Virus record (IMG/VR): IMGVR_UViG_3300035034_000989
Coordinates: 1 to 64,000 of that record
DNA from: a virus
Length of the DNA stretch: 64,000 nt
Direction: 5' to 3' (one strand)
The notes beneath the pieces are model-generated. The model did not search any database, was not told where the DNA came from, and saw only the letters and a program-made list of their open reading frames with translations. A program made the translations under genes and the position numbers. Numbering within the stretch: position 1 is the first letter of the stretch; each line of letters begins with the position of its first letter. This document shows, in pieces, positions 11,441 through 62,062 of the stretch.

Positions 11441-12118
11441 ATGTCATTTCAAAAAACAAAAGTAGACGCCGCTTTAGGCCACAAAGTACAAGCACATTTA
11501 GAATCAATCGGACTACAGACTCCGACCACTGATTTGCTAGGTGCTGACGCATCTTCAAAGATTGCTAAGATTGAAAGTAGCCTAGTCGATGTGTGGGAAA
11601 CACTAGGTATGGATCTGTCAGATGATTCGTTAATGGATACACCCAAACGCATCGCCAAGATGATGGTGCTTGAAAACTATTGGGGTTTGCTCCCTGAGAA
11701 CTTTCCTAAGTGTACCACCATATCAAACAAAATGAAGTTCGACGAAATGGTACTCGAGCGTAACATCTCTGTAATGTCAAATTGCGAACATCACGGTGTA
11801 GTAATTGACGGTTATGCACATGTTGCGTATATACCGGGCGAAAAGGTCCTTGGCTTGTCCAAGCTTAACCGAGTAGTTGAATACTTCTCAAAGCGCCCAC
11901 AGGTACAAGAGCGTCTTACCGCACAGATTTATCATGCACTAAGCTTTATCTTAGAAACTGATAATGTTGCGGTAGTAGTTAACGCAGAGCATTACTGTGT
12001 CAAAAGTCGTGGTGTCGAAGACACTAACTCGCACACGTTTACATCTTACTTGGGCGGCGTGTTCAAAACTGATCCAGCCACACGTTCTGAGTACATGTCT
12101 TTGGTTCGCAGTACCTAA
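11441..12118 (+). CDS. folE: GTP cyclohydrolase I
   Basis: DTPKR, CEHH, GLSKLNR, PQVQERLT, H.C..RG. Confidence 0.97.
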   Translation: MSFQKTKVDAALGHKVQAHLESIGLQTPTTDLLGADASSKIAKIESSLVDVWETLGMDLSDDSLMDTPKRIAKMMVLENYWGLLPENFPKCTTISNKMKFDEMVLERNISVMSNCEHHGVVIDGYAHVAYIPGEKVLGLSKLNRVVEYFSKRPQVQERLTAQIYHALSFILETDNVAVVVNAEHYCVKSRGVEDTNSHTFTSYLGGVFKTDPATRSEYMSLVRST

Positions 12119-13072: not shown

Positions 13073-13543
13073 ATGTACTATTCAACTAAGAAATTTGGTG
13101 CTATATCTACAGGCCACAGACAATTCCGCGCCGCAGAATTAAGAGACAGCAGTCGATGTGCATGGGCACATGGTTACGGTCGCTATGTAGAGTTTACATT
13201 TGGTGCATCTGAACTAGACGCCCGTGGGTGGGTAGTTGACTTCGGCGGACTACGCTTTGTCAAAGCATTCCTCGACGAGCAGTGGGATCACCGCTTGCTA
13301 TTGAGTTCAGAGGATCCGTTGCTACCGCAGTTTTTAGAATTACAAGAACTAGGTGGATGCAACATTAATGTAATGGACGCAAGCAAAGGCTGGGGTCCTG
13401 GCATTGAGCAATCGTGTAGATTTGTCTACGACCATATTGCTCCTCGTATATTCAGCGACAGCGCCGGGCGATGTTCGGTGACCAAAGTTCAAATCTGGGA
13501 ACACGACAACAACAGTGCAATATTTGTACCGGACGACTTATGA
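13073..13543 (+). CDS. queD: 6-carboxy-5,6,7,8-tetrahydropterin synthase
   Basis: HRQ...CxxxHGY, GWVVDFG, WDH, IWEH. Confidence 0.9.
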   Translation: MYYSTKKFGAISTGHRQFRAAELRDSSRCAWAHGYGRYVEFTFGASELDARGWVVDFGGLRFVKAFLDEQWDHRLLLSSEDPLLPQFLELQELGGCNINVMDASKGWGPGIEQSCRFVYDHIAPRIFSDSAGRCSVTKVQIWEHDNNSAIFVPDDL

Positions 13544-30575: not shown

Positions 30576-30621
30576 TAGCTGGATAGACCAACTAACTGCA
30601 TTTATAAGAGGGAATCTTATG
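30575..30621 (+). promoter_or_regulatory. Conserved 5' RNA element of NAD salvage genes, copy 1
   Basis: Hairpin with GG-ATAGA-CC loop, then ATAAGA-GGGAA-TCTTAT(G) RBS hairpin. Confidence 0.6.
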
Positions 30622-31698
30622 CAATCAAACAAACACGACATGGCCGTCTTGATTGGCCGCTTTCAACCGTTTCACCTAGGCCACCAATCGAACTTAGAAT
30701 ACGCAATTAAAAATTGTTCCAGGAACATTCTTATTATTGTAGGATCTAGCTTTCAGCCACGCACCATAAAAAATCCATTTACATTCGAAGAACGCAAAGC
30801 AATGATCGAAGCAGTAGTCGAGGAAATTGATCCTACTGTACACGTAATGGTTGTTGCACAGCGAGACTATATGTACGAGGATAATAAGTGGATCAAAGAA
30901 GTACAACATAGCATAAGTAGCGCACACGAGTTCTTTAGATTGCTATCCTTGACAGCAGACGGCAACATTTGTTTGGTCGGACACGACAAAGATGAGTCAA
31001 CATATTACTTGTCGTTATTCCCACAGTACAGCGTGGTCGATACTGGTGGCTTTGTTACCATGGGAGATCATGCAATTAATGCAACTGAAATACGCAACTT
31101 AATATTTTCCAAAACACCAACATTCGCAATGTCAGCAGTGCCACCTAGCACAGGCAAGAAGATTGCCGAATTTGTAAAAACAGACGCATACGTGCAACTG
31201 GTAGCCGAACACAAATTTATAGCAGACTATAAAAAGCAGTGGGCACACTCGCCGTATCCGCCATCGTTCAACACCGTAGATGCAGTCACCGTCCAAGGCG
31301 GGCATATACTTCTTGTTAAGCGCAAAGCAGAACCGGGAAAAGGTCTATGGGCATTACCAGGGGGCTTTGTTGACCCTGAAGAAACACTCGAGACAGCAAT
31401 GCTACGCGAACTCAAAGAAGAAACTCGCATAAGTGTTCCCTTGCCTATACTGAAATCTAATATAACATATCGCAGACAGTTTGATCATCCTAAGCGCAGT
31501 TTGCGTGGTAGAACATTCAGCGAAGCATTTTTAATCGAAGTACCACTTGACCACAACAAGCAACTAGCCAAAGTGAAAGGCAGCGATGATGCAGAAAAGG
31601 CACAGTGGATTCCTATAAACGATGCACTTGAAATGAGCGAACAGCTATTTGAAGATCATCACTCCGTTATCAGCATGATGGTAGCGAGGTGTAAGTAA
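30619..31698 (+). CDS. nadM: Bifunctional NMN adenylyltransferase / ADP-ribose Nudix hydrolase (NadM-Nudix)
   Basis: GRFQPFHLGH, KNPF, NAT.IR; Nudix box GG.....E......RELKEET; FEDH. Confidence 0.95.
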   Translation: MQSNKHDMAVLIGRFQPFHLGHQSNLEYAIKNCSRNILIIVGSSFQPRTIKNPFTFEERKAMIEAVVEEIDPTVHVMVVAQRDYMYEDNKWIKEVQHSISSAHEFFRLLSLTADGNICLVGHDKDESTYYLSLFPQYSVVDTGGFVTMGDHAINATEIRNLIFSKTPTFAMSAVPPSTGKKIAEFVKTDAYVQLVAEHKFIADYKKQWAHSPYPPSFNTVDAVTVQGGHILLVKRKAEPGKGLWALPGGFVDPEETLETAMLRELKEETRISVPLPILKSNITYRRQFDHPKRSLRGRTFSEAFLIEVPLDHNKQLAKVKGSDDAEKAQWIPINDALEMSEQLFEDHHSVISMMVARCK

Positions 31699-32698: not shown

Positions 32699-32712
32699 GA
32701 GGAAATCTTATG
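32669..32712 (+). promoter_or_regulatory. Conserved 5' RNA element of NAD salvage genes, copy 2
   Basis: CCAGGG-AAAGA-CCTTGG hairpin, then TAAGA-GGAAA-TCTTA(TG). Confidence 0.6.
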
Positions 32713-34254
32713 AACACAAAACTTTTTGAAAACGGCATATTAGCGGCAATACGCGAAACATACGGATCTTTATCAGACACAGACTCATACAAGTACACTC
32801 ATCCTGCTCAGTTCCCGAAAGGCACTGTCAAGATGGTAAGTTATATTGAGTCACGCGGCGGGAAGTACGACGAAGTTGTCTGGGTAGGTTTGCAAGCGAT
32901 TATTGTTGATCAGTTACTTAAACCAATCAAGCACAAGCACATTAAAAACTTGCTTGCGTTTGTTGAAGCACATTTAATGGGCAATACCGATCCTGGTTTA
33001 GAACTAGCGTTCAGCACAGTGGTTGAAGAGTATAACGGCAAGTTGCCAATACGAATTCGTGCCGCCAAAGAAGGACTGGTAATACCTGTTAAAAATGTGT
33101 TGGCGGTAGTTGAAACTACAGTTGAAGACGAACGGATCTTTCCGTTAACAAGTTATGTAGAAGCATTGCTACTACGTGTCTGGTCTCCGACAACTGTCGC
33201 AACCGAGAGTTACGAAATCAAGAAATTGATATTCGAATACCTTAAACATACAGCTGATGATCCGTCTGCAGAGATAGATCTGAAATTGCATGATTTTGGT
33301 TCGCGTGGTGCATCAAGTTCGATGACAGCCGCGCTTGCTGGGCTTGGACACTTGGCAGTGTTTAAAGGTAGCGATAACACAATTGCAAACTTCTTGGCTA
33401 AAATGGTGTATCAATCAGATACTGCGGTAGACGACTTCAGTGACGTGCCCAGTGTCTCGATTCCTGCAACAGAGCACAGCACAACAACCGCACACGGTCT
33501 GGACAACGAAATCCAGATTGTGACGCAGATGTTTGATGCTTATGCAAAGCCGGGCGCAGTGTTTGCAACTGTAATAGACTCGCGCAATTGGCTTAGGTTT
33601 GTACGCGAAATTGCCCCTTTATTCAAGCAACGCTTAATAGATTCAGGTGCCACTTGGGTCTTTAGACCCGATTCAGGGCACCCTGTAAAAACCCCCATAA
33701 AAGTGGTGGAAGAACTGGACAAGGTATTTGGGCATACCATTAATACCAAGGGCTACAAAGTCCTTAACAATGTTGCAGTTATTCAAGGCGACGGTATTAC
33801 TTCGAAAGAAGTTAAAGAAATACTTGTACACTTAACATCACCTGTGTTAAAATGGTCAGCATCAAATATGGCATTTGGTATGGGCGGCGGACTTCTACAG
33901 AAGAACGACAGAGATACACAAAAGTTTGCAATGAAATGTTGCGCTATTTTAAACAATGGAACATGGGTTGACGTTTACAAAGACCCTGCTATATTCGACC
34001 CTGATACTTGGTTAGTTGATGCAACTCAATCAAGTTTTAAGAAATCGAAAATGGGCAGACTTGAGTTGCTGTATAACACACAGACAAAAAGTTACCAAAC
34101 AGTTACCGCAGAAGACTTAGATAGCTTTAGCGGCAAATTTGGTTGGGTACACGCACTCGAAACGGTTTATGAAAGCGGCGAGCTCGTTAGAGTCATGACT
34201 CTATCTGAATTAAGGAAAAACCTTTGTATTGGAACAAGCAGTCACCAGCAGTAA
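32710..34254 (+). CDS. nadV: Nicotinamide phosphoribosyltransferase
   Basis: TDSYK..H, LHDFGSRG, GSD, PATEHS, RPDSG, IQGDG, FGMGGGLLQ..RDT. Confidence 0.95.
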   Translation: MNTKLFENGILAAIRETYGSLSDTDSYKYTHPAQFPKGTVKMVSYIESRGGKYDEVVWVGLQAIIVDQLLKPIKHKHIKNLLAFVEAHLMGNTDPGLELAFSTVVEEYNGKLPIRIRAAKEGLVIPVKNVLAVVETTVEDERIFPLTSYVEALLLRVWSPTTVATESYEIKKLIFEYLKHTADDPSAEIDLKLHDFGSRGASSSMTAALAGLGHLAVFKGSDNTIANFLAKMVYQSDTAVDDFSDVPSVSIPATEHSTTTAHGLDNEIQIVTQMFDAYAKPGAVFATVIDSRNWLRFVREIAPLFKQRLIDSGATWVFRPDSGHPVKTPIKVVEELDKVFGHTINTKGYKVLNNVAVIQGDGITSKEVKEILVHLTSPVLKWSASNMAFGMGGGLLQKNDRDTQKFAMKCCAILNNGTWVDVYKDPAIFDPDTWLVDATQSSFKKSKMGRLELLYNTQTKSYQTVTAEDLDSFSGKFGWVHALETVYESGELVRVMTLSELRKNLCIGTSSHQQ

Positions 34255-44521: not shown

Positions 44522-45280
44522 ATGACACACTACAAAACACTTGACGTCGAACAAGACGCAGACATAAAGACCATCAAGCAAGCATACAAGCGCAAAGCGT
44601 TTAAATTGCACCCCGATAGAAATCCTAGCGATACCGCAAAGAAAGAATACACCGCAGTTCAGGACGCATACGATACGCTGTCTAACAAACAGTCTCGAGC
44701 ACGTTACGACCTAAGTCTGCGTGGTGGGTCAAGTCACAGCACTTACTCGGATGAAGCATACAGCAATTATCACGACATAGACGAACTGTTACGCAGAGCA
44801 AAGTATAACGCATGGAAGCCACATGAGTCAACAGTGTTAACAGCCAAGATAACACTCGAAGAAGCATTCAGCGGTTGTAAACGAGACCACAATGGTCAGG
44901 TCATTAACATACCTGCAGGTGTCATAGATGGCACACGTCTAAAAGTGTCCGATTTAACAATCATGATTACCATACTACCGCACAAAACATATCGTGTTGA
45001 CAAGGTAGACTTGCATGCGAACGTTTACATAGATGCAATACAAGCAATGGTGGGCATAGACTTAATTGTTAACCACCCTAACGGCACCAAGCTTAAAACT
45101 AAAATGATTCCACCTATCCAAGAAGGTCAGCGACTAAGGCTCACTGGCAAAGGTTTAGACAGCGCCACAAGCGGCCTAGGAGACCTGTTTATCTTTTGTC
45201 ACATTGTTGTTCCTGAGTTGACAAGCACTGAAAGAGCTAGTATAGTCAGCTTACTTAATAGCACGTCAACAGAAATTTAA
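44522..45280 (+). CDS. DnaJ/CbpA-like co-chaperone
   Basis: J-domain with HPD, C-terminal DnaJ_C (IPAGV.DG, G.G..GDL); no zinc finger. Confidence 0.92.
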   Translation: MTHYKTLDVEQDADIKTIKQAYKRKAFKLHPDRNPSDTAKKEYTAVQDAYDTLSNKQSRARYDLSLRGGSSHSTYSDEAYSNYHDIDELLRRAKYNAWKPHESTVLTAKITLEEAFSGCKRDHNGQVINIPAGVIDGTRLKVSDLTIMITILPHKTYRVDKVDLHANVYIDAIQAMVGIDLIVNHPNGTKLKTKMIPPIQEGQRLRLTGKGLDSATSGLGDLFIFCHIVVPELTSTERASIVSLLNSTSTEI

Positions 45281-45296
45281 CACACCGGGAAAACAC

Positions 45297-45326
45297 ATGG
45301 CAACTAAACAAATGGCAACTAAACAA
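45297..45326 (+). repeat. 15-nt tandem duplication
   Basis: ATGGCAACTAAACAA x2. Confidence 0.85.
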
Positions 45327-45674
45327 ATAGCATGCTTTTCTGATGTCTTTGCATTTGCAGAAACGGCGCATGGCATCGATTGGAACACAGCAAATGATGT
45401 TTTCTTTAATAACGCATTTGAATACCAGCAAATGAGCGAAGCAGTATTAGGCTTACATGCACTTAGCTATATATCAGATGCCGATATCAAGAGAGCCGGT
45501 GTTCAAGACTATGAGGCGCGGTTACTTGTTGCAGAACAAGCCGGTAAAATCACAGGGCTGTTTACCAAGGAAGAAGTAGCGAACATGACCTCCGCTGCCA
45601 AGTCATACATCATTACCGCTGAGTACCTCGAAAGCATCAACGCAACCGGTTCGGTGCTAGTTGAGTCGTATTAA
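45297..45674 (+). CDS. Hypothetical protein
   Basis: ORF starting with a duplicated MATKQ. Confidence 0.55.
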   Translation: MATKQMATKQIACFSDVFAFAETAHGIDWNTANDVFFNNAFEYQQMSEAVLGLHALSYISDADIKRAGVQDYEARLLVAEQAGKITGLFTKEEVANMTSAAKSYIITAEYLESINATGSVLVESY

Positions 45675-45697
45675 AAGAAAAAACTATCAAACTAGTG

Positions 45698-45726
45698 TTG
45701 ACAGAAACAAAAATAGATAGTATTAT
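45698..45726 (+). promoter_or_regulatory. Sigma70-type promoter for clpA
   Basis: TTGACA-N17-TATTAT. Confidence 0.75.
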
Positions 45727-45760
45727 ATAGTTCATCAGTACAATAAAAAGGGTTAATATT

Positions 45761-48013
45761 ATGTCATCAAGTTCACCACAAGAGTTGTTCCAACGCATAC
45801 TGTCTAATAGCATGGACATACAAAGCAAGAAACAAGTTATTTACTTGTCTCCGGAAGTGTTTACACATGCATTAATGCGTGAGAAAACAGTTGCAGACAT
45901 GATTGCAGAATTAGGTGGCGATCCTAAAATGGCAAAAGAAGAGTTAGAGAAAGCAATTGAAGCACAGCCTAAAGCAGGCTTTGGCGGCAACAGTGGCAAA
46001 ATGTCTACTACCATAGACAACATTATTAAAAAGCAGACAGCAATGCTTGCAACTGCCGATGCTTCGGACGTCACTGAAAAAGACGTATTGTTTGCACTGA
46101 TACTTGATATCATTGATGCAGACCTTACAGATAATCCAGCCAAAGATATCTTAGCAAAGCATGGCGCAACACGCGATGCAGTCGACGACTACCGCATGCA
46201 AAACGGCGATGAAGCAGAGTCTATTCTAGACAAGTACTGTGTCAACCTTAACACAGAATCAGCTAACGGTCAAATCGATCCAGTTATTGGTCGCGAGCAA
46301 GAAGTTGCTGATACAATCGAAATACTAGCACGCCGCAAAAAGAACAACGTTGTTTATGTAGGCGAGCCAGGTGTAGGTAAAACTGCAATTGCAGAAGGAC
46401 TTGCACGTCAAATTGAAAAAGGCGATGTGCCAGAAGCAATAGCTGGCATGGTAGTTTACTCGCTAGACGTTGGCACACTTGTTGCAGGCACCAAGTTCCG
46501 CGGAGAACTTGAAGAACGCTTTAAGAAGATACTTAAAGAAGTCGAAGCCAAAGGCAACGTAATAATGTTTATCGATGAGATGCACATGATCATGGGCGCA
46601 GGCGCTACAAGCGGTGGCACCATGGACGTTAGTAACATGCTTAAACCTAGCTTGGCAAACGGCAAGATCAAACTTGTTGGTGCCACAACAGAAGATGAGT
46701 TCGTAGAGCATCTTGAGAAAGATCGTGCATTGATGCGTCGGGTGCAGAAGATTACAATTAACGAACCTAACGTGCCAGACACCAAGCGCATAGTCCACGG
46801 CATTGTCAAGTACTACACTGAATTCCACGGTGTTGAATATGACGAAGGCGTAGTTGAAACAGCCGTTGATTTAGCAGATCGTTACATCACACAGCGATTC
46901 TTTCCAGACAAAGCAATTGACATCATAGATGCAACTGGTGCCACTGCTAAACTTGCAGGAATAAAGTCAGTAGACATTGCGCGGGTTATTAGCGCAGTGA
47001 GCAAGATGTCTAAAATTCCAGTTGAGATGATTGACGTTAAAGAAAACGATTTGATCAAAAGCATGCCAGCAAAAATGCGCAATGAAGTGTTCGGGCAAGA
47101 CCACGCAATTAAGGTTCTTGAAGATGCTATTATCATTGCGCAGTCAGGATTGCGTGATAGCAACAAGCCGATTGGTAACTTCTTATTTGTTGGGCCAACT
47201 GGCACTGGTAAGACACACATTTGTAAACGACTAGCGGCCAACATGGGAACCAAGATGGTACGCTTTGATATGTCGGAATACCAAGAACGTCATACAGTAT
47301 CTAAGTTAATTGGTGCTCCTCCAGGTTATGTAGGACACGGTGACGGCAAGAACGGCGACGGTCAGTTAATTTACGAAGTATCTAACAATCCTAACTGTGT
47401 GCTACTGCTAGACGAGATTGAAAAAGCGGCTCCGGAAGTTGCACAGCTATTGCTACAGGTAATGGACGATGGTCGTTTAACATCTGCAAGCGGTAAAACA
47501 GTTGACTTCAGTAACGTTATACTGATAATGACTTCTAACTTAGGAGCCGCAGATGCCGACAAGCAAGGTATTGGCTTTGGTGCAACCGACTTCAATGCAA
47601 GCGCAATAAACGAAGCAGTTAAGAAGTACTTTCCACCAGAGTTCCGAAATCGTGTAGATCACATCATACAGTTCAACAAGCTTGAGCAAGAGCAAGTTGA
47701 GACACTGGTTGATGTTGAAATGCAAAAAATGAATGCCGTGCTTATTAAGCAAGGCGTACAGGCTACCATGTCTTTAGAAGCTCGGGCATGGTTGGCTAAA
47801 GAAGGCTACCAGCCAGCACTAGGTGCGCGACCTTTGAGTCGTGTGTTTGAGAGCAATGTTAAGTTACCCGTATCTAGAGAGATACTGTTTGGTAAACTAG
47901 CAGGCGGTGGCATTGTGCATATTGACTTTGATAACACCAAGCAGGTAATACTGATTGATGTTACAAACGAAGGTGCGATAGTTGAGCTACAAGCTGATGA
48001 ACTAACTGCTTAA
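45761..48013 (+). CDS. clpA: Clp protease ATPase subunit ClpA
   Basis: Two AAA+ modules (GEPGVGKT, GPTGTGKT), GAPPGYVG, IGF loop, no M-domain. Confidence 0.92.
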   Translation: MSSSSPQELFQRILSNSMDIQSKKQVIYLSPEVFTHALMREKTVADMIAELGGDPKMAKEELEKAIEAQPKAGFGGNSGKMSTTIDNIIKKQTAMLATADASDVTEKDVLFALILDIIDADLTDNPAKDILAKHGATRDAVDDYRMQNGDEAESILDKYCVNLNTESANGQIDPVIGREQEVADTIEILARRKKNNVVYVGEPGVGKTAIAEGLARQIEKGDVPEAIAGMVVYSLDVGTLVAGTKFRGELEERFKKILKEVEAKGNVIMFIDEMHMIMGAGATSGGTMDVSNMLKPSLANGKIKLVGATTEDEFVEHLEKDRALMRRVQKITINEPNVPDTKRIVHGIVKYYTEFHGVEYDEGVVETAVDLADRYITQRFFPDKAIDIIDATGATAKLAGIKSVDIARVISAVSKMSKIPVEMIDVKENDLIKSMPAKMRNEVFGQDHAIKVLEDAIIIAQSGLRDSNKPIGNFLFVGPTGTGKTHICKRLAANMGTKMVRFDMSEYQERHTVSKLIGAPPGYVGHGDGKNGDGQLIYEVSNNPNCVLLLDEIEKAAPEVAQLLLQVMDDGRLTSASGKTVDFSNVILIMTSNLGAADADKQGIGFGATDFNASAINEAVKKYFPPEFRNRVDHIIQFNKLEQEQVETLVDVEMQKMNAVLIKQGVQATMSLEARAWLAKEGYQPALGARPLSRVFESNVKLPVSREILFGKLAGGGIVHIDFDNTKQVILIDVTNEGAIVELQADELTA

Positions 48014-48571: not shown

Positions 48572-49267
48572 ATGACAGACATTAACGGATATGCTATGCT
48601 ACAACAAATAAACGAGAGTATTAAAATTATGGATAAACCTAATACAGTTGTTTTTTGTTTTGGCCGCATGCAACCCGTAACAAAAGGCCACGAGAAGTTA
48701 ATCAATCGTGTTGTAGCTGAAACAAAGAAACACAAAGCAGATCACATGGTGTTTCTTTCACAGACTCACAGACTCCCTGATAACCCATTGAACTGGGATT
48801 ACAAGCGAAGCTTTGCTAGATTGTCTTTTCCAGGAATACACATTTCAGAAGATGTATCCATTAAGACACCTTACCAGGCATTAGAAAAACTTGCAGAAAC
48901 TTACAAGAAAATTATCTTTGTGTGTGGTAGCGATCGTGTCGAGCAATTCTCGTCAATGGCAGGCTATGCCAAGGAATGGGGCGTTACATCGTTTGTTGCA
49001 GAGTCAGCAGGCACACGTAACAGCAACATAAACACAGTGGAAGGTGTTAGCGGGTCTGTTGCACGCGAGGCCGTTAATAACAACGATTTTAGGTCGTTTT
49101 TTAACTGCATGCCTAGTCGTATAACTCAGAAGCAAGCTGTTGATTTGTTCCGCAAACTACAGACAGAATTAGGGTTAGAAGAAAGTCCTGAAGAACTAAA
49201 CAAGGAAGCCGAAGCATATCGCAAAGGCTCATTAGCAGGCATATTTCATTATACAGGAGCAGGCTAA
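48572..49267 (+). CDS. Cytidylyltransferase-like HIGH nucleotidyltransferase
   Basis: FGRMQP.T.GH, NPL, GSDR, SAG.R, S.S..R. Confidence 0.8.
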   Translation: MTDINGYAMLQQINESIKIMDKPNTVVFCFGRMQPVTKGHEKLINRVVAETKKHKADHMVFLSQTHRLPDNPLNWDYKRSFARLSFPGIHISEDVSIKTPYQALEKLAETYKKIIFVCGSDRVEQFSSMAGYAKEWGVTSFVAESAGTRNSNINTVEGVSGSVAREAVNNNDFRSFFNCMPSRITQKQAVDLFRKLQTELGLEESPEELNKEAEAYRKGSLAGIFHYTGAG

Positions 49268-49268: not shown

Positions 49269-49580
49269 ATGAGACTTCAGGAAATTACAGAATCACTAAG
49301 ACAGAAACAAGTTGCCAATCTAAAGCATCTGTTCGACCAACCGATACCGCTTAACCAAGCAATACAAACACTAAGTCCTTACTTGGTCGATCAAGACTTG
49401 ACTGCAATCATCGACAACGAACTGCAACTCAAAGGAAACATTGACGCCAGAAATTTAATTACCGGATGGTTAAAGCAAAACATGCCAGACTTATACAAAC
49501 AGCCAGTTGAAATGTCACCTGGTTATATGTCTCCTATTTCTTCACACCCCGATATAAGGGGCGAAGGCGATTATCAATGA
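49269..49580 (+). CDS. Hypothetical late protein
   Basis: MRLQEITE N-terminus. Confidence 0.55.
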   Translation: MRLQEITESLRQKQVANLKHLFDQPIPLNQAIQTLSPYLVDQDLTAIIDNELQLKGNIDARNLITGWLKQNMPDLYKQPVEMSPGYMSPISSHPDIRGEGDYQ

Positions 49581-49969
49581 AAAAATATGTACTAGGCTTT
49601 TGCTTTAGTAAAGATCACTCTCATGTAGCAATCATGAAAAAGAACCGCCCAGACGCGCAGGCTGGATTGCATAACGGACTGGGCGGCAAAGTCGAAGAAG
49701 ACGAAAAGCCCAAGCACACAATGGCGCGTGAGTTCGAAGAGGAATCAGGTGTTCACATCATGGCCAACAATTGGCAACAGGTAGACATAAAAACTGATAA
49801 CGAAACATTTTATATTGATGTGTTCTACACTCGTAGCGATCTGGTATACCAATGTCGCACTATCGAAAACGAAGAAGTCATTGTTGCTGAACTTAGCAAG
49901 CTCAGTGAATACGAGTTCTACGATGGTGCAGATGAAATGATTATAAAATTCCACAAAAATTTCTATTGA
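49577..49969 (+). CDS. Nudix hydrolase (MutT-like)
   Basis: GGKVE..E......REFEEESG. Confidence 0.9.
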   Translation: MKKYVLGFCFSKDHSHVAIMKKNRPDAQAGLHNGLGGKVEEDEKPKHTMAREFEEESGVHIMANNWQQVDIKTDNETFYIDVFYTRSDLVYQCRTIENEEVIVAELSKLSEYEFYDGADEMIIKFHKNFY

Positions 49970-53395: not shown

Positions 53396-53424
53396 TTGAC
53401 AACCGAACACAAACTTGCTATAAT
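53396..53424 (+). promoter_or_regulatory. Sigma70-type promoter (perfect) for the clamp operon
   Basis: TTGACA-N17-TATAAT; the -35 lies in one arm of an inverted repeat. Confidence 0.85.
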
Positions 53425-53452: not shown

Positions 53453-54199
53453 ATGGTTTTTAACATCCTATCAGACATAGTAAAACACACACATGGCTTG
53501 GGCTTTATCGAAGCAGTAAAAGTCACTGGCTCACCAGACTCAATTAAAATTGAAGCAATGGAAGAGAACCGTACAGTTGTTGTACAGGGCACCATCAATA
53601 CATCAATTGATAACTTGCAGGGAACTGTTGGCTTATCAAGAATGGGCGTGCTTGCGGGCTACTTGAACTTCGATCGATTTAATTCGAAAGACGCATCGGT
53701 AGTAATTGAAACACGCGATCGCAACGGCACTGAAACTCCATGTGAAGTAACATTTGACTCGGGCTCAGGCCACAGCGGTCAGTATCGCTTTATGGCGGCA
53801 GAAGTTGCAGAAGAGCAAATCCAGGTACCACCTTTCAAGGGCGCTGAGTGGATGGTCACTGTTGATCCAAGCACAACTGCAATCAAAGATTTATCTACCA
53901 TGGACAGCATCCTGGGTAGTTATGAAGATTCGTTTGTTGCACGCACAGTTAACGGCAACTTGGAGTTCCACATTGGCGCAGGCTCAACAGACCGTTCTAA
54001 GATTACATTTGCAAAGAATGTAAAAGGCACATTAAAGCATGCATGGCGTTTTCCAATTGGGCACTTTCTTGCAATCATGAAGTTGCACAGAACGTCTGAG
54101 ACAACACACATCAGCTTCAGTGATATGGGCGCACTTAAAATTGAAGTGAACTCAGGCCTCGGTACGTACACTTACATCATCCCTGCGAGAGCTAGCTAG
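53453..54199 (+). CDS. Sliding clamp (gp45/PCNA-like)
   Basis: 248 aa alternating beta/alpha pattern, C-terminal Y.Y.IPA; directly after PolB, with a clamp loader in the window. Confidence 0.7.
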   Translation: MVFNILSDIVKHTHGLGFIEAVKVTGSPDSIKIEAMEENRTVVVQGTINTSIDNLQGTVGLSRMGVLAGYLNFDRFNSKDASVVIETRDRNGTETPCEVTFDSGSGHSGQYRFMAAEVAEEQIQVPPFKGAEWMVTVDPSTTAIKDLSTMDSILGSYEDSFVARTVNGNLEFHIGAGSTDRSKITFAKNVKGTLKHAWRFPIGHFLAIMKLHRTSETTHISFSDMGALKIEVNSGLGTYTYIIPARAS

Positions 54200-54229: not shown

Positions 54230-55798
54230 ATGACAGAAAAATTCGATCCATTTAATTTAACTGATTCGCAAGAAGACCATTGGGCTGTGCATTTGCCAGC
54301 ATTTAGTGGCTTCTACATTCAGCAAATGGCAAAACTAGACGACAACCCGGATCACTACGGTCCGGATCGGTTCGGACCCACATTCGACAAAGGCCACCGT
54401 GGCCTAGATTTTTATAACGGCGGTGGATACTTTACTTATAAGTGGGGCTTGTATTCAGCAGGACACGCCAAGTTAGATATTGAAAAGTCTAAAGAAAGCG
54501 AACGCTTTGTGCAAAGTCGCAAGCGAGATGGTTCTACATTCCTTCTTGGTGACAGTGGCGGATTCCAGATTGCCAAGGGCGCTGGCCACTTCAAGAACGT
54601 TGATTGGAGTGATTTTGAAGGCGCTGGTGGCGACAAAATACGCGAAAAGGTATTGCGTTGGCTTGAAGAAACTTCTGACTTCTCTATGACACTGGACATT
54701 CCAGCGTTTGCGGCAGAGCCACCATTGAGTCTCAAAACTGGCTTGACATCATTTGGCGACACACTTGATTTAAGCTTGCTTAACTTGTACTACTTTGTTA
54801 AGAATCGTGTGCCAGGCAAAACAAAGTTCTTGAATGTGTTGTCGGGTACCAACTTTGAAAACTCTAGTCGTTGGTACGAAGGTGTTAAAGCATTTAGTGA
54901 CCCGATCGAAGTTGAGAAGATGGACTTTGAACGTGAGCGCACATTAGAAGGCTACGCCTTTGCTGGTATTAACATGAAGCACATGCCCAGTGTACTTGCA
55001 CGCATGGCAGACTTGTTACGAGACGACCTGATCAAAGACAAAGAGTGGATACACTTCTTGGGCATTGGTCGACTAGACTGGGCTTGTTACTTGACATCAA
55101 TACAACGTCAACTTAGGAACTACGAACCTAAGATAACAGTAAGCTTCGATTGCGCCAGCGCATTCCTGGCAGTGGCAAAAGGGCAGATGTATTCGAACCC
55201 TAGTTATACGCCTAAGCGATTTGGCTACAACATGAACAGTGCAATTGATGATCGCAATCTTAAAGAAAGCACATTGCAGATGCCGTTCCCAGGACCTATT
55301 GCAAGTCGCATGAACTTGGGTCATATGTGTCGCTTAGGCCCAGGTGAGCACAACAAGCAAGGCAAGCTTAACAACACAAGCTGGGACACTGCATCGTATT
55401 TGTTAGGTATGGCCAGCAACGTTTACATACACGTTAACGCTGTACAAGAAGCAAATCGCATGGCTGACATGGAGTACACCAAGTTTAACTTGAGTTACAA
55501 AGATTGGTCAAAGCAGAAGCGTGGTTCGCAAGTTAACGAAGTTAGTGACTTTGTTCCTGCAAACATATTGTTCTTTAACTCGTTTGTTGAGTCTTTCTTT
55601 GACAACAGCATGTCGCATGAAGACCGCATGAGCATGATTGAAGACAATCGACAGTTTCTTGAAGCCATCAGCTTTGGTGGACAGAAAGGCAACGTGTTTG
55701 GCAATCTGTTTGATATGTCAGACATAACAACAACAGAAACCGAAGCAGTTGATGCAATTGCTTCATACGCCGATGTTGATGACCTAGACGAGGATTAA
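54230..55798 (+). CDS. TGT-fold guanine transglycosylase (DpdA-like)
   Basis: GDSGGFQ, MTLDIP, IHFLG and SFD motifs of the TGT family; folE/queD/queE in the same window. Confidence 0.75.
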   Translation: MTEKFDPFNLTDSQEDHWAVHLPAFSGFYIQQMAKLDDNPDHYGPDRFGPTFDKGHRGLDFYNGGGYFTYKWGLYSAGHAKLDIEKSKESERFVQSRKRDGSTFLLGDSGGFQIAKGAGHFKNVDWSDFEGAGGDKIREKVLRWLEETSDFSMTLDIPAFAAEPPLSLKTGLTSFGDTLDLSLLNLYYFVKNRVPGKTKFLNVLSGTNFENSSRWYEGVKAFSDPIEVEKMDFERERTLEGYAFAGINMKHMPSVLARMADLLRDDLIKDKEWIHFLGIGRLDWACYLTSIQRQLRNYEPKITVSFDCASAFLAVAKGQMYSNPSYTPKRFGYNMNSAIDDRNLKESTLQMPFPGPIASRMNLGHMCRLGPGEHNKQGKLNNTSWDTASYLLGMASNVYIHVNAVQEANRMADMEYTKFNLSYKDWSKQKRGSQVNEVSDFVPANILFFNSFVESFFDNSMSHEDRMSMIEDNRQFLEAISFGGQKGNVFGNLFDMSDITTTETEAVDAIASYADVDDLDED

Positions 55799-55799: not shown

Positions 55800-55964
55800 A
55801 TGACCGAGCAAGAGGTAATAGACCTGATAACACAAAACCTATCTATAAATATAGATCAGGTAACCGAGTTCGGGCCAGTTGAAACAGTTGTAGTAAAGCT
55901 CGAACTATTTGGCAAAGTTATCTCCGAGCATAATTGTTATTTACCATCACCACACAAGGAATAA
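55800..55964 (+). CDS. Small hypothetical protein (54 aa)
   Basis: SD GAGGA; ORF fills the gap exactly. Confidence 0.5.
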   Translation: MTEQEVIDLITQNLSINIDQVTEFGPVETVVVKLELFGKVISEHNCYLPSPHKE

Positions 55965-55966: not shown

Positions 55967-57160
55967 ATGAGAAAACTTTACTACTGCGGCCTTGAACAGC
56001 TAGAATCCCGATACACTTTACAACTACAAAATTGGAACGAACGTGTGTTTGATAAACGCGAAATTAGCTATGTCTCTGTTCTTGGTAAAAACTTAGACGA
56101 CAAGAAGCAAATCGTCACCGGCAGTGTGCTTGATGCACACGGCCGGACATACTACAGCATGACGCAAATGGCTGAGCTAGTCAAACTCATGCAACAGGGC
56201 GAAATAACAAACCAGGATGTTATTTTCTTTGAAGATATGTTTACACCTGGTATTGAGTCACTTGCGTATATCATGGACCAAGTTGAAGACTGTTACAAAC
56301 CTAAAGTGTTTGTTCGTTGCTTGGCACAAACATTTGATCCAGATGACTTTGTTATACGCGAAGGCATGTTTAAATGGATGCGCAAGTTTGAAGAAATGAC
56401 TGCGGCGTTTGTGGATGGTATTATTGTTGCTAACGAAGAATTCGTTGCACATTTGCGCATAGCTGGCATTGAATGTCCGATTTACGTAAGCGGGTTACCG
56501 TTCGGCAAGGAAGAAGTTGCAAGTCGCATGCCAACCAATCGCCCGTTAAAAGAACGAACCAAACGTGTCACGTTTGCGGCACGCTGGGACGATGAGAAGC
56601 AACCACACTTCTTCATGGACTTAATTGAAGAGGTTTACAAGACGCATCCTGAAATTGAGTTTTGTGTATGTACAGGTGGACCACGGCTCAAGGGCAACAA
56701 CGAAGCGGCCATAGTTCGTGCCCGTGAGATGGAGTACAGTAAAAAAGCAAACTTTAAGATTTACCAGAATCTCAAGAAGGATGATTACTATCGCATACTG
56801 GCTGACACCACTGTATTATTTAATTGTGCATTGCAAGACTGGACATCCAATACAGTAAGCGAAGCTGATACACTCGGTGCATTGACATTGTATCCGGCAT
56901 ATCGTAGCTTTCCTGAAGTGTTTGCAAACAACCACAAGCATTTGTATGCACCGTGGAGCATCGATGATGCAATCGAAAAGCTGTGTGCCATGTTTTGTGA
57001 TGTCGAATCTGACAATTTAGATAGTTACAGCATCGGCAAGATAAGCGATTGGCAAAACGGAACGATCGATCGCACACTAGATATCATGCTAGGAAATGGT
57101 GAACACTGGCGTCGAAACGGCAATGACTATCGCAAACATGTAGCAACACATAAGTTTTAA
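55967..57160 (+). CDS. GT-B (GT4-like) glycosyltransferase
   Basis: FAARWDDEKQP, Y..IL, QD.TS.T..EA, P....FPE motifs. Confidence 0.85.
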   Translation: MRKLYYCGLEQLESRYTLQLQNWNERVFDKREISYVSVLGKNLDDKKQIVTGSVLDAHGRTYYSMTQMAELVKLMQQGEITNQDVIFFEDMFTPGIESLAYIMDQVEDCYKPKVFVRCLAQTFDPDDFVIREGMFKWMRKFEEMTAAFVDGIIVANEEFVAHLRIAGIECPIYVSGLPFGKEEVASRMPTNRPLKERTKRVTFAARWDDEKQPHFFMDLIEEVYKTHPEIEFCVCTGGPRLKGNNEAAIVRAREMEYSKKANFKIYQNLKKDDYYRILADTTVLFNCALQDWTSNTVSEADTLGALTLYPAYRSFPEVFANNHKHLYAPWSIDDAIEKLCAMFCDVESDNLDSYSIGKISDWQNGTIDRTLDIMLGNGEHWRRNGNDYRKHVATHKF

Positions 57161-57223: not shown

Positions 57224-57784
57224 ATGGATAGAGACGGACATAACGATGCAGTGTTCTTTGTCGGCCCAGAAATAGAGCATACCAAAGCATTTAGTATGAA
57301 AACTCTGTTTGTGGTAGGCTACAGAAACAAAGAACAAATACTCGACTTTGCATCTGACAACGGGTGCAAGCATGTTTACCTCGGAGCGAATAAGTCGTTC
57401 CAGAAAAACAAAAAGCTCATTGGTGTTGCAGAATTTTTAATAAGCAATCGCATAATGGTAACACTTGATTACCCACTTGACGCACACAAATGGATAATCG
57501 AAAACTGGCCAGCAAGTGTATTAAACAACAAAGACTTTATTGCAATGATCAGCGTTGAGCTTCCTAAAATTGAAACGTTCAGCAAAAATGCTTGTGTTAA
57601 AATTGATGACACAGGGCTCAGTCAGAACAATACAGGTGTGTGGACACTGCCAATACAAGAACTGTTGGACAGTAATCGCTTTACACCATGGTCCGATTAT
57701 GTACATGACGAAGTGGTGTGGACAGAAGAAGACAATAAAAAGTTCTGGAACGACAAGCGCAATAACGACTATCGGAAAAAGTAA
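57224..57784 (+). CDS. Conserved hypothetical enzyme-like protein in the modification locus
   Basis: G.EIEHT...TLFV, HVY.GAN.SF, KIDD, N.GVW, FT.W..Y..D. Confidence 0.6.
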   Translation: MDRDGHNDAVFFVGPEIEHTKAFSMKTLFVVGYRNKEQILDFASDNGCKHVYLGANKSFQKNKKLIGVAEFLISNRIMVTLDYPLDAHKWIIENWPASVLNNKDFIAMISVELPKIETFSKNACVKIDDTGLSQNNTGVWTLPIQELLDSNRFTPWSDYVHDEVVWTEEDNKKFWNDKRNNDYRKK

Positions 57785-58674: not shown

Positions 58675-59024
58675 AATGGCAATCCAACAGCAAAGATCGC
58701 AGACATTACCTCAAAATACAGCACTATGCCAATTGGCATCGCAAGTTCGTTTGGCTACCCACTCAAATAAGCGGCGACTACGGCATTTGCAAATGGATAT
58801 GGCTCGTGCATGTTATGCGTAAATATCGACTATCATCAAGTAGATTCCACCTGTTTACTTTTGTTAGGCCAATTTACAGACTGCCACATGACCACACTGT
58901 CGCTGTGCTTGAAGACAGCAAAGGAGTCATCGACCGAATAATGTTTGAAGATTATACATCAAGATCAAGATACAAAGAGTTAATAGATAACTTAAATATA
59001 AAAGACAAGGTATTCCAAACATGA
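58671..59024 (+). CDS. Hypothetical protein, WHRKF family
   Basis: NWHRKFVWLPT...WL..VMRK. Confidence 0.6.
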   Translation: MKWQSNSKDRRHYLKIQHYANWHRKFVWLPTQISGDYGICKWIWLVHVMRKYRLSSSRFHLFTFVRPIYRLPHDHTVAVLEDSKGVIDRIMFEDYTSRSRYKELIDNLNIKDKVFQT

Positions 59025-59401
59025 TTAAACGTTTCATAGAAGTAAAATTTACAAAAGAGGGCGTTCATTGCTACCCGGCGGCGGCCACAGATCCTAAATT
59101 AAAAACAGGCGACTGGCTCGACGTATCATTTCTAGCTAACCCACATTTTCATTACTTCCACTTTGTTGTGGCCATCGAAGTATTCCAAAACGATAGAGAC
59201 ATCGAGTTTATACAGTTCTCTCGTTGGTTACAGCGCATGTATGCAAGCGACACGTTACAGCTAAACTCCAAAAGCTGTGAGATGCTTGCAGAGGATCTTA
59301 TTAACGAAGTTGTTAAAACATACCCTGGCAGAGCAATGGTAGTAGAAGTTTCCGAAGATGGCATTAACGGTGCTCGTCTAGAATTTACACCTAATGCCTG
59401 A
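59021..59401 (+). CDS. QueD-like T-fold protein (DpdL-like)
   Basis: EG.H.YP, LxxxHxHxF, DRDIEF, SCEMLA, VSEDG.NG. Confidence 0.65.
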   Translation: MIKRFIEVKFTKEGVHCYPAAATDPKLKTGDWLDVSFLANPHFHYFHFVVAIEVFQNDRDIEFIQFSRWLQRMYASDTLQLNSKSCEMLAEDLINEVVKTYPGRAMVVEVSEDGINGARLEFTPNA

Positions 59402-59739
59402 TGTATATTAAAGTGAAAAGTCGTAGTCTCAAGCGGTTACAAAAGATAGAACGCAATTGCCGTTGGCATCGGTTCTTTGTTATATGGCCACGCAAAATAT
59501 CAACTGTGAGCGGGTACAATGAATTTGCTTTCTTGACTTTTGTTTATCGTAAAGCTAAACTGTGTGTAAGTAGACATTACGAGGACTATTCGCTGTCTAT
59601 ATATTTTAATTTTGTATATGCCAAGACCGAACAAGAAGCATCGATGAGTATATTGTCGGCAGGCGACGAAATCAAGTTCCGTGATGAAGAAACGCAGAAC
59701 TATTACGAGCAATTAAAGGAACAAACTAATGAAGACTAA
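59401..59739 (+). CDS. Hypothetical protein, WHR.F family
   Basis: WHRFFVIWP...FL..VYRK. Confidence 0.55.
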   Translation: MYIKVKSRSLKRLQKIERNCRWHRFFVIWPRKISTVSGYNEFAFLTFVYRKAKLCVSRHYEDYSLSIYFNFVYAKTEQEASMSILSAGDEIKFRDEETQNYYEQLKEQTNED

Positions 59740-60199
59740 ACAATTAACATACGAGCAAATTACTGCACTCGTGCAACATCTAATCGTTGAAATTGAAGCG
59801 AGCAACTGGGAACCAGAGATTATCGTGGGTGTGTCCCGTGGTGGGCTATTACCTGCCATACTGCTCAGCAATCATTTTGAATGCCCGATGCAACCGTTGG
59901 TATGGTCTGCAAAAGATCCTAGTGGCAACGAGTGTAACTGCTGGTTACCAGAAGACGCGATTGCCGGCAAGCACACTCTTATAGTGGAAGACATAATTGA
60001 CACAGGCGAGACCATTAAACAAATTATGGAAGACTGGAATTCGTCAGTACACAAACACATTGACTGGGATTCAGTTGTAAAGGTTGCATGCTTGCACAAG
60101 CGTAACGCAACCGAGTTTGTGCCAGCTTATGTTGCTCACATATTAGATAACAATGATCATCAAGTTTACCCATGGGAGAATACAAATGCCAACCAATAA
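59729..60199 (+). CDS. Purine phosphoribosyltransferase (Gpt-like)
   Basis: GVSRGG, LIVEDIIDTGET PRPP loop, YPWE. Confidence 0.88.
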   Translation: MKTKQLTYEQITALVQHLIVEIEASNWEPEIIVGVSRGGLLPAILLSNHFECPMQPLVWSAKDPSGNECNCWLPEDAIAGKHTLIVEDIIDTGETIKQIMEDWNSSVHKHIDWDSVVKVACLHKRNATEFVPAYVAHILDNNDHQVYPWENTNANQ

Positions 60200-60724: not shown

Positions 60725-61112
60725 AATGCCCGATGCACCCACCGAAGAAATAACCATGCTCATGCTGGATGGAAAAATGTTATCCACAGAAGATGTAAGA
60801 GAGATGGCCACAGGCGGTAACATAAAGTGTCACGTCGAAGGCATGGTAATGTCCATGCTGGTAAGCAATGATTATAGCGAACTCATGTACCATTTGCTGA
60901 ACACCGGTCAATGCACAATGGGATTAGGTCAAACTGAAATTTACCGCATAGTTGGCCCCATCCAAGTCGAAGATACAGAAGGCAGAAAGTTTTATAGATT
61001 ATTAGCCAACTTGGTACATATCGAACAGTCAGACGAAACGTGGGGTGGCATTGTTTATAACAAGGGCATAACCAAAATTAGAAATAAAGCGCAGGTTGAC
61101 AAGAATGCCTAA
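60714..61112 (+). CDS. Hypothetical protein
   Basis: SD GAGGG. Confidence 0.5.
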   Translation: MYFKMPDAPTEEITMLMLDGKMLSTEDVREMATGGNIKCHVEGMVMSMLVSNDYSELMYHLLNTGQCTMGLGQTEIYRIVGPIQVEDTEGRKFYRLLANLVHIEQSDETWGGIVYNKGITKIRNKAQVDKNA

Positions 61113-61124
61113 ATGCTGTATAAT
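61096..61124 (+). promoter_or_regulatory. Sigma70-type promoter (perfect) for queE
   Basis: TTGACA-N17-TATAAT. Confidence 0.85.
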
Positions 61125-61150: not shown

Positions 61151-62062
61151 ATGGCAGACGAATATAGATACACAGAGCTTTTTCGTTCTTTCCAAGGCGA
61201 AGGAACACACACTGGTAAAAACACATTATGGCTACGCTGGTTCATGTGTAACTTGACTTGTAACGGATTCGGACAAGCAGATCCTACTGATCCAAGCACG
61301 CATGTACTGCCATATGAAACGTTTGACATAATCGATGTAACAGATTTAGGACAACTTCCTGTTTTTGAATTCGGCTGTGACAGTTCTTACTCATGGGCTA
61401 AAAAATATAAACACTTGGCAAGCAATCACACAGCAGTTGAGATTGCAGATCGACTAGAAGAGAACCTGCGTTCTGTTTTTAACCCGCATGGCAAGTTCTT
61501 GCATCCGTTAAGCGGCGCTGAAACTCATATGTGCTTTACAGGCGGTGAACCCATGATGCGTAACAGTCAGCGTGGCATAGAAGCAGTCATGCGCGAGTTG
61601 CACACCAGAGGCAACATGCCCAACAATGTAACAATAGAAACCAACGGCACACAGAGAATGACCAAAGAGTTTGGCGAGTTCTTGGTATGGTTCGAAAGAA
61701 ATTCAGACAACGGCGAATGGTTCTGGAGTTTTAGTCCTAAGCTGTTTAACACAAGTGGCGAAACTGCACGCAAGGCAATTAAGCCAGCTGAAGTTGCACA
61801 TTACCAAGAGTACTCACAAGCAGGGCACTTGAAGTTTGTTGTTAACGGAACGACAGCCACGTGGGAAGAGCTAGAAGCGGTTGTTAAAGAGTTTCGAGCA
61901 GAAGGCATTGAATTTCCAGTTTGGATTATGCCGGTCGGTGCAACCAAAGAAGCCCAGGAAACGGAGCAAGTAAAGATAATTGTTGCTGAAACCTTGAGCA
62001 GAGGTTATAATGTTAGTGGAAGACTCCACGCACACATGCTGGGCAACGAATTAGGAACATAA
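61151..62062 (+). CDS. queE: 7-carboxy-7-deazaguanine synthase (radical SAM)
   Basis: E.F.S.QGEG..TG, CNLTC...CDS, TGGEP, IETNGT, SPKL, LKFV, RLH. Confidence 0.92.
   Translation: MADEYRYTELFRSFQGEGTHTGKNTLWLRWFMCNLTCNGFGQADPTDPSTHVLPYETFDIIDVTDLGQLPVFEFGCDSSYSWAKKYKHLASNHTAVEIADRLEENLRSVFNPHGKFLHPLSGAETHMCFTGGEPMMRNSQRGIEAVMRELHTRGNMPNNVTIETNGTQRMTKEFGEFLVWFERNSDNGEWFWSFSPKLFNTSGETARKAIKPAEVAHYQEYSQAGHLKFVVNGTTATWEELEAVVKEFRAEGIEFPVWIMPVGATKEAQETEQVKIIVAETLSRGYNVSGRLHAHMLGNELGT

Follow-up and report, generated by a model that had tools for sequence, protein, structure and literature searches.

What does a glycosyltransferase do when its gene stands beside that of a DNA-guanine transglycosylase in a viral genome? 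The question is raised by a 64,000-nucleotide (nt) stretch of DNA from an uncultured giant phage (hereafter, the window; positions 1 to 64,000 of IMG/VR record IMGVR_UViG_3300035034_000989), which is one end of a 103,982-base record rated 29% complete. On the plus strand of the window, at 55967..57160 (ATG at 55967, stop at 57160), lies a gene for a 397-residue GT-B/GT4 glycosyltransferase (hereafter, GT). A first-pass annotation, made from the DNA letters and their translations, had likened this protein to the queuosine-tRNA mannosyltransferase QTMAN (formerly GTDC1) and had taken it for a nucleic-acid deazaguanine glycosyltransferase as opposed to a surface-polysaccharide enzyme. The answer that we favor, with a probability of roughly 0.5, is that GT most likely takes part in DNA modification by placing a sugar on a base derived from deazaguanine.

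The argument begins with the company that the gene keeps. As the first-pass annotation held, the adjoining gene (54230..55798, plus strand) is of the transglycosylase kind, encoding a long, 522-amino-acid (aa) DNA-guanine transglycosylase of the DpdA type with GDSGGFQI and IHFLGIG motifs, and FolE, QueD, QueE and DpdL are present as well, that is, the gene set of a DpdL-type (QueC-less) module. GT itself lies within the replication/modification gene block, behind the polymerase and the clamp. Among 80 related viral loci searched by tblastn, DpdL was found in 75, the long DpdA in 52, FolE in 55 and QueE in 43, and another 19 loci showed a shorter, ACP17-type DpdA in place of the long one, plus a second glycosyltransferase. 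A broader survey with profile hidden Markov models (HMMs) covered 146 loci, which comprise 107 with distinct GT sequences and 63 that are well flanked (at least 5 kb on both sides of GT). DpdL accompanied GT in 99 of the 107 distinct loci and some DpdA in 95, and in all eight loci without DpdL, GT lies at most 1.4 kb from a locus end; the counts for the well-flanked loci were 63 for DpdL, 61 for DpdA, 51 for QueE, 50 for FolE and 35 for QueD. The median distance between GT and DpdL is 280 bp, and of the 99 loci with both, 23 have a gap that does not exceed 100 bp. It is important to note that the 107 loci represent related phages and that their counts are not independent events. The sampling covers an abundant marine group, with distant uncultured lineages outside it, and a scan seeded with the 20 most distant GT homologues (A7) again returned this group, at 29-34% identity to the seed. 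Because the locus counts are not independent, the distant cultured lineages are more telling.

At least six cultured phages carry the GT gene. A 22% identical GT lies between DpdA2 and DpdL in the Acidovorax phage ACP17, where these two genes were assigned by Cui, Hutinet et al. (NAR 2023, supplement DS1; PMC10516641), and the gene order in PAC2, a PA5oct-like Pseudomonas phage, is that of the window. The Sinorhizobium phage Phosso has DpdL with GT directly after it, the Xanthomonas phage BUDD and phage BCSR5 have GT directly upstream of a DpdA, and the same pairing is found in BUCT-ZZ01, with a GT that is 55% identical. When ten cultured phages with DpdL were compared, the GT profile matched five (Phosso, BUDD, BCSR5, PAC2 and ACP17) and gave no match in RHph_I1_18, Bakedbeans, Ahp1_CNU-2021, D479 and phiST. 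DpdA of the window or ACP17 type (families A2 and A3, respectively) was present in exactly the five GT-bearing phages, albeit marginally in BCSR5 (E 0.009), and in none of the other five (two-sided Fisher p ~0.008, computed by hand). That is, GT serves the DpdL system as an optional arm and travels with one DpdA type; this 5/5 vs. 0/5 co-occurrence is new here, as is the tie to the modified G of phage PA5oct discussed below. The conserved gene context thus links GT with the modification of DNA by 7-deazaguanine and not with surface polysaccharide, and this part of the first-pass proposal stands, while the acceptor known from QTMAN is not transferable to GT.

Two observations concern the transferase genes of these clusters more generally. 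The GT of PAC2 (8004-9065 of locus L085) is the most diverged gene of the block shared with the window (21.6% identity vs. 45-59% for the polymerase, clamp, DpdA and DpdL), which points to a sugar-transfer step that evolves fast or has been replaced. In addition, a second, unrelated GT4-like glycosyltransferase of ~447 aa stands directly upstream of the short DpdA in "type II" clusters, namely in BUCT-ZZ01 (L001, 6010-7353) and in 19 viral loci (e.g., L019, 6930-8270), and elsewhere in L055, L074 and L077; no homologue of it was found in the 104-kb record to which the window belongs. Two transferases in one cluster could mean a disaccharide.

How far, then, does the likeness to QTMAN go? The four C-terminal motifs named in the first-pass annotation are all present: FAARWDDEKQP occupies residues 203-213, with HFF next at 214-216 (nt 56573-56614), YYRILA 274-279 (nt 56786-56803), QDWTSNTVSEA 290-300 (nt 56834-56866) and YPAYRSFPEVF 309-319 (nt 56891-56923). 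These stretches are the best-conserved C-terminal blocks across the large GT family. The parallel motif series that the annotation had given for GTDC1/QTMAN also exists, in 18 bacterial QTMAN-family proteins (consensus ARWEHDKNPExFF, HEFFGISVVEA and PRRLxYPE). These bacterial proteins stood in for the QTMAN side of our comparison, with the animal enzyme itself outside it. They derive from 26 loci that gave 24 open reading frames (ORFs), 18 of which had plausible starts and were aligned (A6). The Pfam model PF12038, now named QTMAN_N, detected proteins in 57 of 301 genomes of a single bacterial phylum, all with E ≤1e-41, so the model demonstrably works; full-length QTMAN-family proteins (QTMAN_N plus a GT4 domain) were seen in 57 of the 301 sampled genomes and in none of 14 well-known control genomes. 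As controls, 30 loci of the same phylum with strong Glyco_transf_4 matches provided 19 ORFs of 340-470 aa.

In hmmsearch, the phage GT HMM matched 18 of 18 QTMAN proteins at 33.1-67.3 bits (profile positions ~160-365) and reached a maximum of 16.5 bits among the 19 GT4 controls, although these controls come from one phylum and were picked by their N-domain, and unsampled GT4 subfamilies could be equally close. The best score of the phage GT profile against all PDB chains was 22.5 bits, for WlaC. In the reverse direction, the QTMAN-family HMM matched 100 of 100 phage GT members, including the window protein at 42.6 bits over residues 193-350. Profile-profile comparison gave the same ranking: 98.8%, E 6.8e-17 and score 130.6 over 309 columns for the phage GT family vs. 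the QTMAN family, compared to 96.8%, E 2.3e-10 and score 84.5 vs. the pooled controls (QTMAN family vs. pooled controls: 98.9%, score 134.4). Taken one protein at a time, the phage GT profile scored 63.4-104.7 (median 87.0) against the 18 QTMAN proteins and 11.9-63.1 (median 28.5) against the 19 controls (Mann-Whitney p 2e-7). When the domains were separated, the likeness turned out to reside in the C-domain (hhalign 99.3%, E 2e-20, 147 columns vs. QTMAN; 93%, E 3.5e-7 vs. controls), while the N-domain aligned with QTMAN_N at only 0.5% (E 0.11, 19 columns) and with generic GT4 enzymes at 57% (E 1e-4). Likewise, a scan of 100 GT members at E up to 0.1 matched 31 Pfam families, and PF12038 is not one of the 25 that were listed. 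Judged from sequence comparison, therefore, the donor half of GT is specifically akin to that of QTMAN, more so than to any GT4 enzyme compared, whereas the acceptor half is a different, family-specific domain, so that GT, though in part like QTMAN, is not a member of the QTMAN family. This controlled distinction between a QTMAN-like donor domain and an acceptor domain that is not so is new here and upholds half of the first-pass resemblance. Since the N-domain, the acceptor side in GT-B enzymes, has no detectable QTMAN_N likeness, the acceptor of GT is not inferable by homology.

The structure model places GT in a broader frame. An AlphaFold2 model built with an alignment of 100 diverse GT homologues (A1) has a mean predicted local distance difference test score (pLDDT) of 95.4 and a predicted template modeling score (pTM) of 0.93, and shows the two-domain GT-B fold, i.e., two Rossmann-like domains with a cleft between them, the family-specific N-domain spanning residues ~1-185 and the QTMAN-like donor C-domain ~186-380. 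The best Foldseek matches in the PDB were glycogen synthase, MshA, BshA, GlgM, SenB, LmbT and PimA, at E values from 4e-13 (lowest, 4.4e-13) to 1e-10. VIA-align, run against 48,161 chains, put sucrose-phosphate synthase (Z 27.3), BshA (26.6), glycogen synthase (25.7) and PglH (25.6) on top, with GT4 chains at Z 27.3-22 over residues 1-379, that is, over both domains, and up to 348 residues aligned. Lower ranks included a pterin glucosyltransferase (5zer, Z 23.2, rank 15) and T4 alpha-glucosyltransferase (1y6f, Z 20.8, root-mean-square deviation 4.2, 326 residues aligned), the latter at rank 31, below many GT4 rows. The small-molecule GT4 enzymes among the best matches share only 7-14% sequence identity with GT and are tied with many other GT4 enzymes. 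Among viral structure models, the nearest were the ACP17 GT and one 370-aa protein (E 1.2e-18 and 7e-24), followed by the next at E 3e-11, and a cyanophage DNA alpha-glycosyltransferase ranked 17th (E 1.3e-9). As modeled, the structure points to a GT4-type enzyme and to nothing more specific. The first-pass annotation had named best structural matches to LPS/capsule GT4 enzymes as an outcome that should tell against its reading, and this has come about in that the best matches are ordinary GT4 enzymes; with no QTMAN chain among the matches listed, however, such a search cannot discriminate.

The donor site is well preserved. Ten positions of A1 are invariant (R15, Q67, D90, G95, A120, D124, D127, R206, K211 and Y274), and D208, E210, P213, Q290, D291, S294, P310 and F315 are conserved at 98-99%. 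We take R206/K211 to occupy the position of the GT4 phosphate-binding pair and D291-x7-E299 that of the GT4 EX7E motif, the first Glu of which is replaced by Asp in this family; the latter two residues are conserved at 98% and 90%, respectively. The near-invariance of R206, K211, D291 and E299 argues for a working donor site. GT is thus predicted to be an active, GT4-type (retaining-class) GT-B glycosyltransferase, a prediction that forms part of the reading weighed here as a whole.

Searches with GT itself returned little beyond its own, very large and almost purely viral family. Its sole Pfam match was Glycos_transf_1 (residues 193-339, 22.1 bits, below the 26.4 cut-off), a model that 73 of 100 family members matched; PHROGs and NCBIfam scans of the protein gave no match, a single-sequence PDB search gave a chance match only (E 1.1), and megablast of the locus against phage records found nothing. 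By contrast, more than 7,800 of 8,000 candidates scored, from a database clustered at 90% identity, matched GT at E ≤0.001, and clustering at 50% identity left 889 representatives at E ≤0.001 and 581 at 1e-10. The nearest ESM Atlas clusters are 72-100% viral, except for two bacterial rows, and the family is very abundant in aquatic viromes. A 20-sequence subset of A1 searched against genome contigs hit seven contigs of metagenome-assembled genomes at 54-56% identity, which look like the same phage group. The start at 55967 is preceded by AAGGA nine bases 5' of the ATG, and an alternative in-frame TTG at 55934 would add 11 residues only. Two homologues are unusual in architecture: P0265 (726 aa) has an intein-splicing domain inserted within the glycosyltransferase, and P0188 is fused to a 280-residue tail for which the searches made gave no match.

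Under the reading that we favor, FolE, QueD and QueE would make 7-carboxy-7-deazaguanine (CDG), which DpdL would process, decarboxylation to 7-deazaguanine being predicted by Cui et al. (PMC10516641), and the long DpdA would exchange guanine in phage DNA for the base. GT would then use a nucleotide sugar to glycosylate the deazaguanine-derived base, most likely after base insertion if QTMAN on tRNA and the T4 enzymes on DNA are valid analogies. The acceptor, the donor, the glycosylated atom and the timing of this last step are what we infer; because the donor domain of GT is kin to that of QTMAN, an alpha-mannosyltransferase that uses GDP-mannose to modify queuosine-34 of tRNA-Asp, GDP-mannose would be the first donor candidate. 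Two published observations are relevant in this respect. DNA of phage PA5oct resists five restriction enzymes and has been read as carrying a modified G, to which no identity was assigned (PMC12191111), and 2'-deoxy-7-deazaguanine (dDG) was not obtained from ACP17 DpdL plus DpdA in E. coli, for which further enzymes were suggested to be needed (PMC10516641).

Several points weigh against this reading. Ordinary O-glycosylation needs a hydroxyl, which both 7-deazaguanine and its 7-carboxy form lack, and no hydroxylase was found in the window. Since 7-deazaguanine has no side-chain hydroxyl, the sugar linkage would have to be unusual, with the sugar attached as a C-glycoside at C7, as an N-glycoside or, in the 7-carboxy form, as an acyl-glycoside. 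Further, the Cellulophaga phage phiST reaches full dDG replacement (PMC10516641), yet without this GT; phiST is among the five of ten cultured DpdL phages without GT, and neither synthesis nor insertion of the base thus depends on the enzyme. The GT family is also acidic, with a median isoelectric point (pI) of 5.72 (5.44 for the window GT and 4.8 for its N-domain), and R15 and R60 are the only conserved basic residues of the N-domain. Such acidity is unlike a usual DNA-binding cleft, and a small-molecule acceptor fits at least as well; the neighboring DpdA is likewise acidic (pI 5.15). Finally, the N-domain is not QTMAN_N, no nucleotide-sugar gene was seen in the 104-kb record, and the locus counts, as stated above, derive from related phages.

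Alternatively, it is possible, if rather unlikely in our view, that GT glycosylates a small molecule and not DNA, that is, free 7-deazaguanine or CDG, its nucleotide formed by a phosphoribosyltransferase, or a pterin intermediate of FolE/QueD, with DpdA then inserting the sugar-bearing base or with a product that never enters DNA. The acidic N-domain with its few conserved basic residues is consistent with this, as are its many invariant Asp, Gln and aromatic residues (D56, Q67, D90, Q121, D124, D127, Y16, W23, Y101 and W137), which may line a pocket for a base or pterin. The small-acceptor enzymes BshA, MshA, SenB, LmbT and the pterin glucosyltransferase 5zer (Z 23.2) are among the best structural matches, although these matches are tied over many GT4 enzymes and 5zer does not stand out. 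The frequent position of GT directly beside DpdL (a gap of at most 100 bp in 23 of 99 loci), its strict co-occurrence with one enlarged DpdA type and the failure of ACP17 DpdL plus DpdA to give dDG in E. coli, with other enzymes suggested (PMC10516641), would also fit this alternative. However, the glycosylations known for nucleic acids (T4, QTMAN) follow incorporation, and the free bases are equally devoid of a hydroxyl.

We consider it improbable that GT is an ordinary phage glycosyltransferase with a non-nucleic target (e.g., a storage sugar, a phage protein or a glycan on the host surface), placed among the deazaguanine genes by shared genome ancestry. Its only Pfam match is indeed generic and sub-threshold (Glycos_transf_1, 22.1 vs. 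26.4 bits), the top solved structures are all ordinary GT4 enzymes and the counted loci are mostly related phages, but the linkage persists where GT is 21-22% identical and the gene order rearranged, GT occurs in exactly the five of ten cultured DpdL phages with this DpdA type, and it is placed in the replication/modification block behind polymerase and clamp. Still less probable is that GT no longer transfers sugar and instead assists this DpdA type structurally or in handling DNA. Its strict co-occurrence with DpdA, to which it is often adjacent, together with the Asp in place of the first Glu of EX7E, would suit such a partner; R206/K211 and D291/E299, on the other hand, are invariant or nearly so over 100 diverse members, and a donor domain this well conserved is unexpected in a dead enzyme. 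The least probable of these alternatives, and in our opinion a very improbable one, is glucosylation of a hydroxymethylated pyrimidine (hydroxymethylcytosine or hydroxymethyluracil) in the T-even style, independent of the deazaguanine genes. It draws on the fold likeness to T4 alpha-glucosyltransferase (1y6f, Z 20.8, rank 31) and on a thymidylate-synthase-family protein encoded at 8930-9793. The latter is, however, a full-length Thymidylat_synt match (E 1.7e-77) that keeps PPCH and LPFN, and bears no dCMP hydroxymethylase signature. The Asn of LPFN is a mark of dUMP-specific enzymes, and on that basis there is no sign of a dCMP hydroxymethylase; moreover, the T4 enzyme and the cyanophage DNA alpha-glycosyltransferase model are outside the closest matches of GT. 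Of these readings, we favor sugar transfer to a deazaguanine-derived base in DNA. A more specific version of this reading, namely that the DNA of these phages contains a glycosylated, possibly mannosylated, purine arising when a dedicated DpdA inserts a deazaguanine-derived base and GT, with a donor domain sharing ancestry with that of animal QTMAN, then decorates it, is one that we put forward tentatively and would not yet bet on.

The other genes of the module are spread over the window. The DpdA neighbor had no direct Pfam, PHROG or PDB sequence match, its family profile found nothing in the PDB, and PHROGs matched one of 39 family members (E 0.0088); its assignment is based on the DSGGxQ motif of the catalytic loop and on homology to a phage DpdA that had been assigned before, since the family of the neighbor (A2, 39 sequences) aligns with the ACP17 DpdA2 family (A3) at 96.1% (hhalign, E 3.1e-9, 249 columns). 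It is also 45% identical to a 544-residue open frame directly upstream of GT in PAC2. Between dpdA and GT lies a 54-aa ORF (55800..55964, plus strand) that is not conserved, with no match better than E 0.68 in 80 related loci, and that may not be a gene. Downstream of GT, DpdL (59021..59401, plus strand) is a QueD-like T-fold protein and predicted CDG decarboxylase with the motif LANPHFHYF, a match to phrog_17812 and 50% identity to ACP17 DpdL (E 6e-35). The QueE-like radical SAM enzyme, a CDG synthase, is encoded at 61151..62062 (plus strand; phrog_2076, E 2e-51), FolE (GTP cyclohydrolase I) at 11441..12118 (plus strand; PF01227, E 2.8e-56) and a QueD/PTPS-like protein at 13073..13543 (plus strand; PF01242, E 1.7e-18). 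The last reads CAWAHGY in place of the QueD signature CxxxHGH quoted by Cui et al. (PMC10516641). The 103,982-base record gave no match to QueC (PF06508) but, being rated 29% complete, leaves its absence unproven.

Inside the module, a xanthine/guanine-type phosphoribosyltransferase (59729..60199, plus strand; identified by library matches) is found near GT in 21 of 63 well-flanked loci as well as in BUCT-ZZ01 and PAC2. It could convert a free deazapurine base to a nucleotide, opening a pre-replicative route beside the DpdA route, as in the pathways of deazapurine nucleoside antibiotics. A conserved protein that we call p186 (57224..57784, plus strand) follows GT and is present in 43 of 80 related loci and 39 of 63 well-flanked ones; its ACP17 homologue, ASD50402, lies directly upstream of dpdA2. 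In its model (pLDDT 91.7), QueE structures were the best matches in two aligners, if weakly (VIA-align Z 6.3, 6.0 and 5.6; Foldseek E 0.016), but p186 is without the CxxxCxxC cluster motif and aligned with phage QueE at 0.4% in hhalign, with no sequence support, and we rejected a QueE-like assignment. Upstream of dpdA, a sliding-clamp-like protein (p248; 53453..54199, plus strand; phrog_12062; 46% identical to a PAC2 protein annotated as PCNA) stands outside the chemistry and is the first gene after a promoter-like site that matches the sigma-70 consensus at 12 of 12 positions (53396..53424, plus strand) upstream of clamp, dpdA and GT. A second 12/12 site precedes queE (61096-61124). These are the only two perfect matches noted, and promoter-like sites in total show no excess (28 vs. 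29.8 in shuffles).

Nearly all window genes are on the plus strand. Besides a family-B DNA polymerase, ribonucleotide reductase, ligase and clamp loader, many chaperone/protease genes are present. The chaperone/protease set is unusually full for a phage, with a ClpX-like ATPase, Hsp20, ClpS, Fe/Mn superoxide dismutase, ClpP, a GroEL-type chaperonin, DnaJ and a 750-aa ClpA/ClpB-type ATPase at 14948-17459, 24446-25063, 28330-29955 and 44522-48013. There is also a NAD salvage pair (30619-31698 and 32710-34254) consisting of a cytidylyltransferase-like/Nudix fusion and a nicotinamide phosphoribosyltransferase, and a second cytidylyltransferase-like gene (48572-49267) with a Nudix gene (49577-49969) just upstream of the polymerase. 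Outside the window, the same record encodes, on the minus strand, a NodU/CmcH-type carbamoyltransferase (14947-16407 of locus L083, i.e., 78947-80407 of the record). Enzymes of this type carbamoylate sugars and nucleosides.

To our knowledge, natural sugar decorations of DNA are on hydroxymethyl pyrimidines only. A sugar-bearing deazapurine, if true, would add a new class to the known DNA hypermodifications, perhaps with a new linkage chemistry, and would have effects on modification-dependent defence as well as on restriction and CRISPR. In that case, decorating deazaguanine with sugar would be an old trait common to tRNA and viral DNA. The deazaguanine DNA bases named in Cui et al. 2023 (PMC10516641) are all sugar-free, and the parts of the literature searched contained no account of a deazaguanine glycosylated in DNA. 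Nor did the literature searched assign a role to this GT, including the main-text passages on "glycosyl" and the supplement rows of Cui et al. 2023 (PMC10516641). The proposed activity could explain both the modified G of the therapeutic jumbo phage PA5oct (PMC12191111) and the failed rebuilding of dDG from ACP17 DpdL and DpdA alone (PMC10516641), and the kinship with the QTMAN donor domain provides a concrete first candidate for the donor.

Compared to known systems, the closest in gene content is the DpdL-type dDG system of phiST (FolE, QueD, QueE, DpdL and DpdA3; PMC10516641), which has the same QueC-less gene set with DpdL as the window record but no member of the GT family and a different DpdA type; ACP17, which is in the supplement of the same study (PMC10516641), has in turn a GT homologue between its DpdA2 and DpdL. 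The T4 alpha- and beta-glucosyltransferases resemble GT as phage enzymes of the GT-B fold, and add their sugar to a previously modified base once the DNA has been replicated, but they belong to other sequence families, act on a pyrimidine hydroxymethyl acceptor (hydroxymethylcytosine) and are not the closest matches of GT. The small-molecule GT4 enzymes (BshA, MshA, SenB, LmbT and BGluT, 5zer) are the best overall structural matches of GT, and BGluT glycosylates a product of the FolE/PTPS route; unlike GT, however, none of them is linked to DpdA or DpdL. QTMAN, finally, differs from the phage enzyme in its N-terminal acceptor domain, with none of QTMAN_N detectable in GT, in acting on tRNA whereas GT sits in a DNA-modification context, and in the acceptor hydroxyls of queuosine's cyclopentenediol, which have no counterpart in 7-deazaguanine or its 7-carboxy form. 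Yet the conserved motifs of the two can be aligned (ARWEHDKNPExFF with SRxDxEKxPxFF, HEFFG..VEA with QDWVS..LEA, and PRRLxYPE with YPxxRSFPE), and QTMAN is, like GT, a GT-B/GT4 enzyme tied to a 7-deazaguanine nucleobase, with a donor domain that is the closest relative found for the GT C-domain.

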